Virus record (IMG/VR): IMGVR_UViG_2698536571_000008
Source of the DNA: a virus
Lineage: Duplodnaviria > Heunggongvirae > Uroviricota > Caudoviricetes
Strand: one strand, 5' to 3'
DNA length: 4,268 nucleotides
The notes under the pieces were generated by a model, which searched no databases, was not told where the DNA came from, and saw nothing but the letters and a program-made list of their open reading frames with translations. Position 1 is the stretch's first letter; each line of letters opens with the position of its first letter. Shown here piece after piece: positions 1 through 4,268 of this stretch. Both the position numbers and the translations under genes were made by a program.

Positions 1-51
1 GGGGAATATCTCCCCGGCAGCCTTCAGGGAAAAATATCATCAGATGGCTGC

Positions 52-405
52 TTAAAAAAAGAACAAATGGTAGTGTCCGCTATTGCCAGTACACCTCAAT
101 TGCTCTGCGGCTTCGCTCAGAGCTGGCGTATGTTCCCGGCCTACTGATTCACACAGGTAATCAACGAAACCGGACACCAGTTTTCGTTCGCGAGGCGTGA
201 TCGCCCCACCGACCGGAGTCCAGTAATCGAAACCCAGTTGCAGGAGTTTGAAAAAACGCTTGTGGAATGCGTAGTTACACACACGCTTAAAGTCTGCGTG
301 TATCCACTCACCTATTTTGATTTGATGCAGAAAATCGCAACTCTCCGGCGTCGCCGGGAGAAGTAATCCGGAAGAGGTTTGTTTGACCAGTTGTATATGT
401 GCCAT
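52..405 (-). CDS. Hypothetical phage protein, about 117 aa from the ATG at 405. The ORF track's 131-aa version starts at a TTG at 447.
   Basis: Open frame 52..447 on the minus strand with TAA stop at 52-54. The internal ATG at 403-405 is preceded by GGAG with a 7-nt spacer (minus strand CCGGAGAAAGCCG-ATG), whereas the TTG at 445-447 has no Shine-Dalgarno. I do not recognise the family. Confidence 0.45.
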   Translation of the reverse strand: MAHIQLVKQTSSGLLLPATPESCDFLHQIKIGEWIHADFKRVCNYAFHKRFFKLLQLGFDYWTPVGGAITPRERKLVSGFVDYLCESVGREHTPALSEAAEQLRCTGNSGHYHLFFF

Positions 406-443
406 CGGCTTTCTCCGGTGGCACGGTGTTACACAGCAGGAGT

Positions 444-731
444 TCAATCCTGCTCAAGATTGTAGATGAGTTTATTCTTCAGCAAAAGCAGAAAACCAGC
501 CTTAAAACCAATCTCTTTCAAAACCCGTAATGATGTGACAAATTCGTCCTCACGCAAAATAAAACCGTCCGTCAGAAGTCCATTACAAAAATAAAATAAC
601 ACAGCACCGCTCTTCCTTTGTTGAGATTGCAAACATCTAATGCGGCAATGGCTGACAATCGCTCCATTCTCAACGCGCACAGCATAGAGGCCATTTTCAC
701 TAAAAATTTCACGCAATTCTTCGATTTTCAT
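444..731 (-). CDS. Hypothetical small phage protein (95 aa)
   Basis: ATG at 729-731 preceded by GGAAGGA with an 8-nt spacer; TGA stop at 444-446. It lies downstream of a predicted promoter and upstream of the ORF at 52-405. No family recognised. Confidence 0.5.
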   Translation of the reverse strand: MKIEELREIFSENGLYAVRVENGAIVSHCRIRCLQSQQRKSGAVLFYFCNGLLTDGFILREDEFVTSLRVLKEIGFKAGFLLLLKNKLIYNLEQD

Positions 732-980: not shown

Positions 981-1136
981 TTACTTCCTGGATTCGTAGT
1001 CTACGAAGACAGCGACCTCCGTCTGGCCGGTTCGGATTCGTACCTCACAGAGGTCTTTCCTCGTTACCAGTGCCGTCACTATGACGGTTAAACAGATGAC
1101 GATCAGGGCGATTAACATCGCCTTTTGCTGCTTCAT
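981..1136 (-). CDS. hok: Hok/Gef-family type I toxin (51 aa small membrane peptide)
   Basis: Translation MKQQKAMLIALIVICLTVIVTALVTRKDLCEVRIRTGQTEVAVFVDYESRK has the Hok signature: a single transmembrane helix, the TRKDLCEV motif and the conserved C-terminal region. It is very close to E. coli HokC/HokD as I remember them, with a different C-terminal tail. ATG at 1134-1136 is preceded by AGGAG with a 9-nt spacer; TAA stop at 981-983. Confidence 0.85.
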   Translation of the reverse strand: MKQQKAMLIALIVICLTVIVTALVTRKDLCEVRIRTGQTEVAVFVDYESRK

Positions 1137-1193
1137 AGCCTGCTTCTCCTTGCCTTTCGGCATGTAAGAGGCTAACCTACATGTGCAAAGCAT
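981..1193 (-). CDS. mok: Mok-like regulatory reading frame (70 aa): an in-frame N-terminal extension of hok
   Basis: ATG at 1191-1193 is preceded by GAGG with an 8-nt spacer. The N-terminal extension MLCTCRLASYMPKGKEKQA resembles the MokC extension (MLNTCR...KEKRAMKQHKAM) as I recall it, and is in the same frame as hok. Confidence 0.55.
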   Translation of the reverse strand: MLCTCRLASYMPKGKEKQAMKQQKAMLIALIVICLTVIVTALVTRKDLCEVRIRTGQTEVAVFVDYESRK

Positions 1194-1363: not shown

Positions 1364-2050
1364 TCACTCCTTCTCTTCTTTACCGTAGTGGAGTTGACCA
1401 ATTTTGATAAGAGGGCGTCCCTGAGATTTGCGGTGTAGATTGGTATCGCGCAGAGAATACACACAGCCACAATATTCCTGCTGATAGAATTTTTCGCGCT
1501 TGCTGATTTCAATCATACGGGACGAGCCGCCCTGCTTGCGCCAGTTATAATCCCAGTACACCATGCCCGGATAATGCGCGACGGCTCGCCGCCCACAGTC
1601 GTTAACCTGCTGCATATTTTTCCAGCGTGAAATGCCCAGTGAACTGCTGATCACACTGAAACCATTTTCAGCGGCGTACAGCGCTGTCCGCTCAAAACGC
1701 ATGTCAAAACACATGGTGCAACGGATCCCTCGTTCGGGCTCCCATTCCATTCCTTTGGCTCGTTCAAACCAGTTGTCTGTGTCGTAATCAGCATCAATAA
1801 ACGGCACGCCGTGTTGTTCAGCAAAGCGAATATTCTCATCCTTACGAATTAAATACTCTTTCTGAGGATGAATGTTCGGGTTGTAGAAAAAGATGGTGTA
1901 GTCGATTCCCGAGGCCTGAAGCGCCTCCATCACCTCACCGGAACATGGAGCACAGCAAGAGTGCAGTAGTAGTTTGTTTGCCCCGTTTGGGAGCTCCAAT
2001 TTGGGCCGTTTGAAATCAGCAACTGTCATAAATATGTTTATTGGGGTCAT
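1364..2050 (-). CDS. queH: QueH-like epoxyqueuosine reductase homologue (DUF208 family). The 5' end is uncertain: candidate ATGs at 2050 and 2029, or the frame may extend into the N block.
   Basis: Translation carries the DUF208/QueH hallmarks [39 protein letters not shown] and [12 protein letters not shown]. Stop codon at 1364-1366. Neither ATG at 2050 or 2029 has a Shine-Dalgarno, and the frame stays open up to the N block. Confidence 0.75.
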
Positions 2051-3356: not shown

Positions 3357-3560
3357 NNNNNNNNNNNNNNNNNNNNNNNNNNNNNNNNNNNNNNNNNNNN
3401 NNNNNNNNNNNNNNNNNNNNNNNNNNNNNNNNNNNNNNNNNNNNNNNNNNNNNNNNNNNNNNNNNNNNNNNNNNNNNNNNNNNNNNNNNNNNNNNNNNNN
3501 NNNNNNNNNNNNNNNNNNNNNNNNNNNNNNNNNNNNNNNNNNNNNNNNNNNNNNNNNNNN
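3357..3560. other. Run of 204 N (masked or unsequenced), hiding the 3' end of the replication-initiator gene and the 5' end of the DnaC-like gene
   Basis: Directly visible. Confidence 1.
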
Positions 3561-3818
3561 CGCGAACAGGCCCTGGTATTCATTGGCGATGCTGTGTCGA
3601 ATCACCTGCTCAGGTGTAAAACCCTGCTGACGGAATTTTTCCAGTTCCCGTATCGCCCCGTTAGCGCCCTGCTCCGTTCGAATCGGTTTTCGCAATGCCT
3701 GTCTGAACCGGACCCACTCATGCCAGAGTGTTTCCGGCAACCAATCGGGCAGCTCAATAGCCTCCGGCTCGAATTTTTTAGACGCTCGTTTTTGGCGAGG
3801 GGGAGATCAGTATTTAGA

Positions 3819-3863
3819 TCTTCCTCTTCCTCTTCCTCTTCCTCTTCCTCTTCCTCTTCCTCT
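3819..3863. repeat. Perfect hexanucleotide tandem repeat (TCTTCC)7.5, which on the minus strand is (GAGGAA)n encoding Glu14 in the linker frame
   Basis: Seven complete TCTTCC units plus TCT, counted base by base. The plus-strand reading (poly-Ser in ORF 3207..3878) is the antisense artefact. Confidence 0.95.
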
Positions 3864-3966
3864 GGTAACGCTTTTTGATCCGTTTGTGTAACGCTGGCAG
3901 CGTTACCTTTTCGTTTCAGTTCGCGTATTTTTGTTACTCGCTCGTTTGTAACCGCCCGTTTTTTTT
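3864..3966. other. Iteron-like repeat cluster plus T-rich tract inside the replication-initiator linker region; candidate phage replication origin
   Basis: 19-bp palindrome GTAACGCTG-G-CAGCGTTAC (3888-3906). Further GTAAC(G/C)C or GTTAC-containing copies at 3865-3871, 3933-3941 and 3948-3955. Recurring CGTTTGT(G)TAAC at 3881-3892 and 3942-3952. T8 tract at 3959-3966. Confidence 0.3.
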
Positions 3967-4171
3967 AGAGCTTTTTCCGTTATGACGTTCAAAGTTAGGT
4001 AGAGAAAGCCCTCCGTCATTTTCGACCAGCCATCCAACCTGAATTAACGCATCAGCAAAACCAGACATAAAAGTGATGCGATCTATTGCACTTTTTGTAA
4101 CGCCGCGAGCGTTACAATCTGCATTACCGTCTATCATTTGTTGATCCGCCCATGCCCAGAAGCGAATAACC

Positions 4172-4268
4172 TGAGGTAGCCTGAGTTTAACGGACACTCC
4201 TTCCTGAAATAGAATGGCATCAGAAGGAGCTAATAATGAGCAGAAAAACCCAACGTTACTCTAAAGAG
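4172..4268 (+). mobile_element. Left end of an IS3-family insertion sequence (IS600-like), partial; continues beyond the window
   Basis: Terminal sequence TGAGGTAGCCTGAGTTTAACGGACAC starts with TG and has a GGACAC box about 20 nt in, as in IS3-family left inverted repeats. The orfA start lies 64 nt inside the end. The N-terminal peptide MSRKTQRYSKE fits the IS3-family OrfA pattern (basic residues, then Y/F-S-x-E-F-K). Confidence 0.5.
4236..4268 (+). CDS. IS3-family transposase OrfA, first 11 codons only
   Basis: ATG at 4236 is preceded by AAGGAG (4223-4228) with a 7-nt spacer. Translation is MSRKTQRYSKE and the frame is open to the window edge. Confidence 0.45.
   Translation, partial: MSRKTQRYSKE

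Follow-up and report, generated by a model that had tools for sequence, protein, structure and literature searches.

We examined a hexamer repeat in a 4,268-nt stretch of tailed-phage DNA (Caudoviricetes; IMG/VR record IMGVR_UViG_2698536571_000008), referred to here in full as the window. On its minus strand the window carries the remnant of a prophage replication-initiator gene of the YdaU family (3561..4172) and, inside this remnant, a (GAGGAA)7 microsatellite (3819..3863), which we characterized by Tandem Repeats Finder, translation, alignment with intact genes and the strain-typing literature. Tandem Repeats Finder reported one strong array in the window, with a period of 6, 7.5 copies, 100% matches and a score of 90; the consensus TCTTCC on the plus strand corresponds to (GAGGAA)7 on the minus strand. 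By this measure the tract is a microsatellite, that is, a short unit repeated perfectly head to tail. An earlier note on this DNA had described it as a perfect hexamer of 7.5 units, which the program and the sequence both bear out, and its perfection is far beyond chance. The minus strand at the tract reads CCA (GAG GAA)x7 GAT, giving P-E14-D. This is the frame of the ancestral gene, since intact homologues read ...KGNAASVTQTDQKALPEEEEEEDLNTDLPLNPPRQKRASKKF... there, and also ...QKALPEEEEEEDLNTDLPLNPPRQKRA... The same note placed the repeat in frame within an initiator; this is correct for the ancestral frame and not for the window copy, in which the gene is split over three frames. Three GATC (Dam) sites are found within 76 bp close by the tract (3805-3808, 3817-3820 and 3877-3880), one of them directly after the last Glu codon (GAA GAT C).

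The initiator remnant was identified by megablast, PHROG profiles and three-frame translations, and its 3' end enters an N-masked stretch. Megablast of the minus strand of 3561-4172 hit 681 complete E. coli genomes (coverage >80%, identity 94-96%), in which the gene is labelled 'hypothetical protein' or 'phage replication initiator YdaU family protein'. Further matches were to 'ydaU' of a Rac-type phage record and to 'DNA replication protein O' in three E. coli phages. The remnant belongs to the family by homology, its DNA being 94-96% identical to annotated YdaU-family members over 612 nt. An intact 262-aa homologue matched PHROG phrog_2509 ('replication initiation protein') over residues 1-262 at 3.9e-89, and its residues 118-262 matched the PHROG 'primosomal protein' and 'replication initiation O-like' families (phrog_6451, 'primosomal protein', at 1.8e-39, a label only). 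The intact initiator matched no Pfam family, so its N domain is not the DUF1376 of K-12 YdaU, and a Foldseek search of its model against PDB returned nothing below E = 0.001, with weak winged-helix or Rep-like resemblances only. The genes around the remnant form a Rac-type replication module, with ydaT upstream and ydaV (encoding a DnaC/IstB-like ATPase) and genes for DUF1627 and DUF977 proteins downstream.

The AlphaFold model (19 homologues) has confident domains at residues ~11-97 and ~160-235. Across residues 98-159 (62 residues) the predicted local distance difference test score is below 50, and the Glu run (138-143) lies inside this segment. In intact relatives, which translate it as Glu4-Glu12, the tract encodes a predicted disordered interdomain linker. 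The earlier placement of the tract between an N domain and a DnaT-like C domain is therefore kept in part: two confident folded domains do flank it in intact homologues, and the likeness to DnaT is dropped, the match to NCBIfam PRK02854 (DnaT) being 16.2 bits against a cut-off of 201 and confined to the last 19 residues, beside which there are the PHROG labels only. The corresponding part of the gene is N-masked in the window. A tblastn survey indicated that in many phages recombination has joined each half of the initiator to a different partner: TL-2011b, epsilon15 and CP2 have the N half, and Gifsy-2 ('lambda gpO homolog'), mEpX1 and N7 have the C half. Many E. coli and Salmonella homologues have a 114-aa insertion (THPKPFPSGREF...GGAV) directly after the Glu tract (homologues P0011-P0058, 376-380 aa; alignment A2, columns ~170-305). 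Homologues with the insertion are 374, 376, 378 or 380 aa long, each length being one hexamer unit from the next.

The lesions in the window copy were called by aligning it to three intact or near-intact genes. The end of an IS600 element (IS3 family; 4171..4268, plus strand), recognized by matches to 'IS3-like element IS600 family transposase' and with the orfA start ATG at 4235, lies at the 5' side of the gene. Homology to ydaU starts at 4172, and IS600 stands in place of the first ~35 codons and all that lay before them, on the promoter side; the same 98 bp of IS600 occur elsewhere in related loci. The alignment, a survey of loci and translation revealed an A8 homopolymer (3959..3966, minus strand) where intact genes have A6; this is a +2 frameshift, and the N-domain frame stops at ...GRLQTSE*. 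A 10-bp deletion (junction at 3798..3804, minus strand; TCCCCCTAAATCCCCCT aligned to TCCCCCT) falls between direct repeats and constitutes a second frameshift, which splits the Glu frame from the C-domain frame. The same 10-bp lesion is present in loci L022, L031, L048, L051, L052, L068, L072, L114 and L150-L154. Three frames separately hold the N-domain remnant, the Glu tract and the C-domain. Between its upstream stop and the tract the Glu frame contains no ATG, GTG or TTG, and the first start is at 3757, downstream of the tract. Owing to the IS600 truncation, the A8 run and the 10-bp deletion, the window has no intact open reading frame (ORF) for an initiator with both domains. We concluded that the initiator gene in the window is dead and that Glu14 is not expressed as part of an initiator; the gene being a pseudogene, no Glu14 linker is made in the window.

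The A-run at 3959-3966 is a second hypermutable site, present as A5, A6 (intact), A7, A8 or A9 in related loci, and it lies within a block of raised synonymous conservation (TCT AAA AAA CGG, codons 101-110). IS600 termini are found at both ends of the window (1-99 and 4171-4268), and positions 5-98 are the 94-bp unit of SF5 ('IS600 OrfB'), a variable-number tandem repeat (VNTR) of S. flexneri. The left IS600 copy truncates a DUF1367 gene (52-447, minus strand), in which the Pfam match covers profile positions 1-102 of 198. The window prophage is degraded as well as the initiator gene.

The copy number of the hexamer was compared across related loci from IMG/VR and NCBI. In the 119 flank-bearing IMG/VR loci, the counts by number of units were 2 (12 loci), 3 (88), 4 (16), 5 (1), 6 (1), 7 (1) and 8 (3). 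A spread sample of complete E. coli genomes had mostly 3 units, with 4-, 5- and 6-unit alleles too, and the protein database contained LP-E(n), with n = 2-10, in homologues from E. coli, Shigella, Salmonella, Citrobacter, Klebsiella, Serratia, Yersinia and Enterobacter. A pattern scan for the tract and its flanks in a genome contig collection gave no match. Loci sharing the A8/A9 run and the 10-bp deletion with the window had 3, 3, 3, 5, 6, 7, 8 and 8 units. Five complete genomes (L150-L154) were recovered via the neighbouring DUF977 protein; these had 5, 6, 3, 3 and 7 units, and four of the five were 100% identical to the window at every unmasked base outside the repeat, over ~3.9 kb. Among genomes with the same lesions as the window and no substitution in these flanks, the counts were 3, 3, 3, 5, 6 and 7 units. 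The fifth, L154, is without the IS600 insertion and differs from the window by one substitution. The 7-unit allele is found again in L154 (HE616528.1, an independent complete genome, presumably that of S. sonnei 53G) and in the IMG/VR contig L072.

Whole-unit differences among very close relatives with conserved flanks define the tract as a VNTR. The earlier note had called the repeat a natural site of length polymorphism and had proposed a comparison of copy number across homologous prophages; alleles of 2-8 units are indeed found in related prophages, and they differ even among genomes with identical flanks. The tract is slippage-prone, and these comparisons indicate that its length in the window drifts neutrally, with whole 6-nt units gained or lost as strands slip in replication. 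Alleles of 7-8 units were found exclusively in broken genes in this small sample, and the 8-unit E. coli allele sits in an independently frameshifted gene. A stricter rule, that 5 or more units occur only in broken genes, is true of the IMG/VR sample and was rejected, since intact E. coli genes have 5 units in DEC5E and 6 units in ETEC1738.

Two published loci for multiple-locus VNTR analysis (MLVA) of Shigella very probably correspond to this tract. One of them, SS10 of S. sonnei, reportedly originates from Liang et al. 2007. The forward primer of SS10 is ACGGTGGGCTTTCTCTACCT (PMC3420240, Table 1), and a site for it with 1 mismatch is present in the window (3997..4016, minus strand), 134 nt upstream of the tract and pointing to it. 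SS10 has a 6-bp unit and 9 alleles of 2-10 repeats, and was one of eight 'highly variable' loci in 1,672 isolates, in which the alleles were sized by polymerase chain reaction (PCR) and capillary electrophoresis (PMC3310650). The second locus, SF1 of S. flexneri, has a 6-bp unit with the consensus TCTTCC in S0917, a 'putative bacteriophage protein' (PMC2806262, Table S1). Strains 301, 2457T and 8401 have 2-3 copies of the unit, and 242 isolates have 1-4 copies or lack the locus (PMC2806262). The homologue in S. flexneri SFBU1023, at ~0.887 Mb, carries GTGGAAGAGGAA, and the SF1 gene S0917 lies at ~0.9 Mb. The predicted length polymorphism was right, and it was already known, because SS10 and SF1 are published markers. 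As a polymorphic repeat the locus is ordinary and already exploited, and it accounts for some of the strain discrimination achieved by Shigella MLVA. In S. sonnei the marker evolves neutrally within a dead gene, which is worth bearing in mind when allele distances are interpreted.

The DNA beside the tract is also repetitive. A repeat search found a cluster of GCGTTAC/GTAACGC half-sites, which are putative initiator-binding repeats, directly abutting the tract (3864..3907, minus strand); within it are a single half-site, AGCGTTACC (3864-3872, minus strand), and a perfect palindrome, GTAACGCTG-N-CAGCGTTAC (3888-3906, minus strand). A second palindrome, TTGTAACGC-N5-GCGTTACAA (4095..4117, minus strand), lies in the N-domain coding part, at codons ~53-59 of the intact gene. 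Five exact GCGTTAC/GTAACGC sites are present in the window, where 0.34 would be expected, and they all fall in 3865-4115; 200 shuffles never gave as many as five. The half-sites adjoining the tract are invariant across 15 genera. In a DNA alignment of 15 genera, GTAACGC-N5-(A/G)GCGTTACA-N~10-CAAAAAGCGTTACCA-GAGGAAGAG... was nearly invariant, while the spacers between the motifs vary freely. The motif GCGTTAC is read in differing frames (S-V-T and A-L-P; its complement x-N-A), and the rare Leu codon TTA is fixed. In 16 loci, palindromes of the motif with 12-nt spacing were found at ~35 nt before the start codon, at codons ~50-58 and at codons ~122-135. In most genera GTAACGC-N5-GCGTTAC stands ~20-35 nt upstream of the initiator start (2866-2884 in L002, with equivalents in L126-L140); this upstream palindrome suggests autoregulation of the initiator. 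In the window the start-proximal palindrome region is replaced by IS600.

Constraint on synonymous sites was estimated by aligning 16 genes codon by codon, taken from different genera (proteins 42-70% identical), and scoring the same-codon fraction among pairs with the same amino acid. The fraction was 0.84-0.93 at codons 121-150 vs. 0.3-0.5 over most of the gene, and it was also raised at codons 46-60 (0.66-0.76) and at codons 96-110 (0.60-0.67). The Glu codons of the tract alternate between GAG and GAA across genera: positions 2, 4 and 6 were GAA in 34 of 34 cases and positions 1 and 3 were GAG in 25 of 32, with GAA making up 58% of the Glu codons elsewhere in the genes. Because the synonymous sites in and around the tract are frozen, a constraint at the level of the nucleic acid is indicated. 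An Rfam scan of 3561-4268 gave no match, and a scan for promoters and terminators was at chance level.

More distant homologues have a different repeat at the same gene position. The 23-mer AGAGAAGAGAAGAGAAGAGAAGA, which contains (GAGAA)4, is found there in phages of Pseudomonas (VW-6S, phiPSA1), Xanthomonas (CP2), Ralstonia (YL1, Raharianne, RPZH3) and Salmonella (epsilon15, SPN1S); phage TL-2011b has the hexamer form. The distant tract is all-purine and encodes REEKRRE(D/E), not poly-Glu. Directly before it are 3-4 short clade-dependent repeats, GGTAACG/CGTTAC, GTCCGC/GCGGAC or GTAGAC/GTCTAC. In eight of these distant genes (52-65% G+C) all 23 Arg codons of the tract are AGA, a codon used for 11 of the 135 Arg residues elsewhere in those genes. 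The exact 23-mer was detected in at least 120 IMG/VR viral contigs, always inside an ORF of ~165-375 aa, within a purine run of 23 to 52 nt (contigs L165-L284). A 6-mer repeated at least three times on either strand was present in the 70 nt before the 23-mer in 88 of 102 cases vs. 20 of 204 control segments, and the 30 nt after the tract were modestly A/T-richer (57% vs. 48%). The repeats upstream of the 23-mer are very diverse, for example GCAATGCAAAT xN, GTGTCCCGAGA x3 and GTCACG/CGTGAC (L165-L284), and this diversity would imply many initiator specificities with one common tract. Six sampled 23-mer ORFs with unrelated N termini all matched PHROG replication-initiation, primosomal or O-like families, and both downstream genes that were scanned encode DnaB-type helicases. 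We had also considered the reading of the 23-mer in three frames as an argument against a peptide motif. This was downgraded, since a 5-nt repeat yields (REEKR)n in every frame; codon invariance is the stronger argument.

We regard it as highly probable that the tract in the window is the slippage-prone VNTR SS10/SF1 in a dead YdaU-family initiator gene, and that in intact relatives the purine tract and its repeats mark a likely in-gene origin. Taken by itself, an in-gene origin is the likeliest function in the intact relatives as judged from sequence comparison, and we give it close to an even chance. What the position probably conserves is an all-purine DNA or RNA tract abutting putative initiator-binding repeats, as a cis-acting origin inside the initiator gene in the manner of lambda O. 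The repeated putative sites co-vary with the N-domain clade, in addition to their enrichment (5 vs. 0.34) and the conservation of synonymous sites. The element beside the repeats is a GA polypurine tract and not a classical A/T-rich DNA unwinding element. A more detailed proposal, which we hold tentatively and as somewhat short of an even bet, is that the tract is the enterobacterial, codon-phased form of a widespread and apparently undescribed cis element, most often seen as the exact 23-mer, in which the repeats are initiator sites, the tract is the place of opening or priming, and the VNTR is a by-product. The literature, incompletely covered, contained no description of the purine element or of the position of oriJ relative to ydaU, which is not proof of novelty.

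In such an origin the clade-specific short repeats (3-6) would be the binding sites of the initiator, and the purine tract would be where the origin opens or is primed. This could happen by way of an R-loop, a stable purine-RNA:DNA hybrid left by transcription of the gene, or the tract could direct strand-specific loading of a helicase or primosome; alternatively, it may serve as an unwinding site. The enterobacterial unit would merely happen to be 6 nt long, and from this the VNTR behaviour in Shigella and E. coli would follow as a by-product. The hexamer is tolerated as a VNTR because 6-nt slippage keeps the frame; with the 5-nt unit of (GAGAA)4, which three does not divide, gain or loss of one unit would cause a frameshift. 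Two other roles were set aside. Triplex (H-DNA) formation was not kept as the common mechanism, (GAGAA)n being, on inspection of the sequences, a mirror repeat and (GAGGAA)n not. An internal Shine-Dalgarno or internal start role was dropped because no suitably spaced start follows the tract and (GAGAA)n is without GGAG.

The peptide rather than the DNA could be what is selected, with an acidic, flexible and possibly DNA-mimicking poly-Glu linker that tunes initiator spacing or autoinhibition and the DNA repeat being incidental. All enterobacterial homologues have LP-E(n)-D/K, in which L136, P137, E139 and E142 are invariant in 19 sequences, the poly-Glu segment is predicted to be disordered, and intact genes tolerate E4-E12 and even the 114-aa insertion right after the tract. 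However, the homologues of Pseudomonas, Xanthomonas, Ralstonia and epsilon15-like phages read REEKRRE(D/E) there, which is not acidic, while their DNA is still all-purine; the synonymous positions at the tract are frozen, including the rare TTA-Leu and AGA-Arg codons; and the window gene is dead and makes no peptide. We consider selection of the peptide unlikely, although it is the most serious of the alternatives, and the acidic or DNA-mimicking linker proposed in the earlier note is contradicted by the distant homologues and the frozen synonymous sites. It is improbable, more so than the linker explanation, that the mid-gene block is a recombination junction, i.e. linker DNA at a module boundary kept by phage mosaic exchange and not by replication. 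The tract does lie exactly where the architectures diverge, the same N domain and tract being joined to different C-terminal parts, and K-12 Rac ydaU has only the C-terminal half in common. A junction does not account for half-sites that are invariant while their spacers vary freely, which argues for site-specific constraint and not recent shared ancestry, nor for half-site sequences that differ by N-domain clade (GTAACGC, GTCCGC, GTAGAC, GTCACG) in an unchanged layout, nor for the presence of the same palindrome upstream of the start codon and at codons ~50-58.

A highly mutable repeat within coding sequence would also fit a contingency locus, in which copy number switches initiator expression (phase variation). 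Yet with a unit of 6 nt every change is frame-neutral, all observed alleles differ by whole units, and the frameshifts in the initiator gene stem from the A-run and the 10-bp deletion, not the hexamer; nor was there any sign that the unit number alters the spacing of a promoter or ribosome-binding site of a downstream gene. The unit length all but refutes a contingency locus, and we see hardly any chance of phase variation here. Equally implausible is a tract length produced by faulty assembly or sequencing. Errors are frequent in low-complexity repeats and homopolymers, and the neighbouring A-run differs among assemblies, but the 7-unit allele recurs in the independent genome HE616528.1 (L154) and the IMG/VR contig L072, and PCR with capillary electrophoresis gave alleles of 2-10 units in the 1,672 isolates (PMC3310650).

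Several points weigh against the reading of the tract as SS10/SF1 and, in intact relatives, as part of an in-gene origin. The links to SS10 are limited to the forward primer, the unit size and the allele range, and those of SF1 to the window are the unit sequence, the annotation and the map position. The codon-identity and other statistics given above ignore phylogeny. Poly-Glu can be encoded only by purines (GAA/GAG), so that peptide and polypurine constraints are confounded in the hexamer class, and concerted evolution driven by slippage could by itself keep the GAG/GAA alternation. The (GAGAA)n class, for its part, encodes one periodic peptide, (REEKR)n, whichever frame is read, and may act at the peptide level as a charged spacer of the ER/K type.

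The repeat finding itself is ordinary; the part worth following is the recurrent purine tract beside iteron-like repeats in phage initiator genes. The repeat marks the centre of an apparent origin embedded in the initiator gene, and a purine tract recurs in initiators with several different N-terminal domains, in phages of Enterobacterales, Pseudomonas, Xanthomonas and Ralstonia. If the origin reading is true, a simple sequence signature would point to the origins of many temperate phages and prophages in which replication is unstudied, and the alleles of 2-10 units would form a natural series in which tract length can be related to origin function.

Other features of the window lie away from the tract. 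A homologue of QueH (epoxyqueuosine reductase; 1364-2029, minus strand; PF02677 at 1.8e-65) is encoded in the interval from the DUF977 gene to a hok/gef toxin gene; lambdoid prophages do not usually carry such a gene. The Hok/Gef family toxin ORF (981-1193, minus strand; PF01848 at 9.8e-23) encodes 51 or 70 aa in related loci. Two masked runs of N are present (2070-2263 and 3357-3560), of which the second covers the initiator pseudogene at its 3' end and ydaV at its 5' end; L150-L153 are identical to the window elsewhere, and the gaps could be filled from them.

Compared with the published markers, the window has the same 6-bp unit (TCTTCC = GGAAGA/GAGGAA), and the published ranges (2-10 for SS10 and 1-4 for SF1) cover the 2-8 units found here. 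The SS10 and SF1 papers treat the locus as an anonymous marker, and the initiator gene, its pseudogene status in S. sonnei and the conserved DNA block across genera are unmentioned in them. As in other in-frame coding VNTRs of bacterial genes, the unit is a multiple of three, changes occur by whole units and mutability rises with the number of units. Unlike such VNTRs in general, the array overlaps sequence that is conserved at synonymous sites, and its host gene is already inactivated.

The closest functional parallel would be ori-lambda. The lambda O sequence contains four annotated iterons followed by the purine-rich A/T stretch ACAAAAGAAAAAAGAAAAGA, within the segment of O that encodes the hydrophilic linker ...TKDTITKEKRKDYSSENSGESSDQPEN... 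Both genes place a strand-asymmetric, purine-rich stretch after the repeats, in the section coding for the hydrophilic linker that joins an N-terminal origin-binding domain to a C-terminal loader-recruiting domain (both roles being putative for the initiator here), and a helicase-loader gene comes immediately downstream; the C domain described here is shared with 'lambda gpO homologue' proteins. The N domain, however, is unrelated in sequence to that of lambda O. Instead of four adjacent 18-bp iterons as in lambda, ~430 bp here contain scattered palindromes of the 7-nt half-site GTAACGC, one of them upstream of the gene; the tract is GA-rich (50% G+C) and not A/T-rich, and the origin here is putative. 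YdaU of the K-12 Rac prophage (b1359, DUF1376) is encoded at the same place, in the order ydaT-ydaU-ydaV. Its C-terminal half is 78% identical in DNA, and the same C-run/TAAAT/C-run element follows the linker. It differs in having another N domain, mid-gene GTTCAAACA repeats and no (GAGGAA)n tract, so that only the C-terminal half is shared. In K-12 MG1655 ydaU (L285, 765-940), three copies of GTTCAAACA and an inverted copy are followed by an A-rich purine stretch and C7-TAAAT-C7; the middle of this gene has the same layout as the window initiator, with other repeats.

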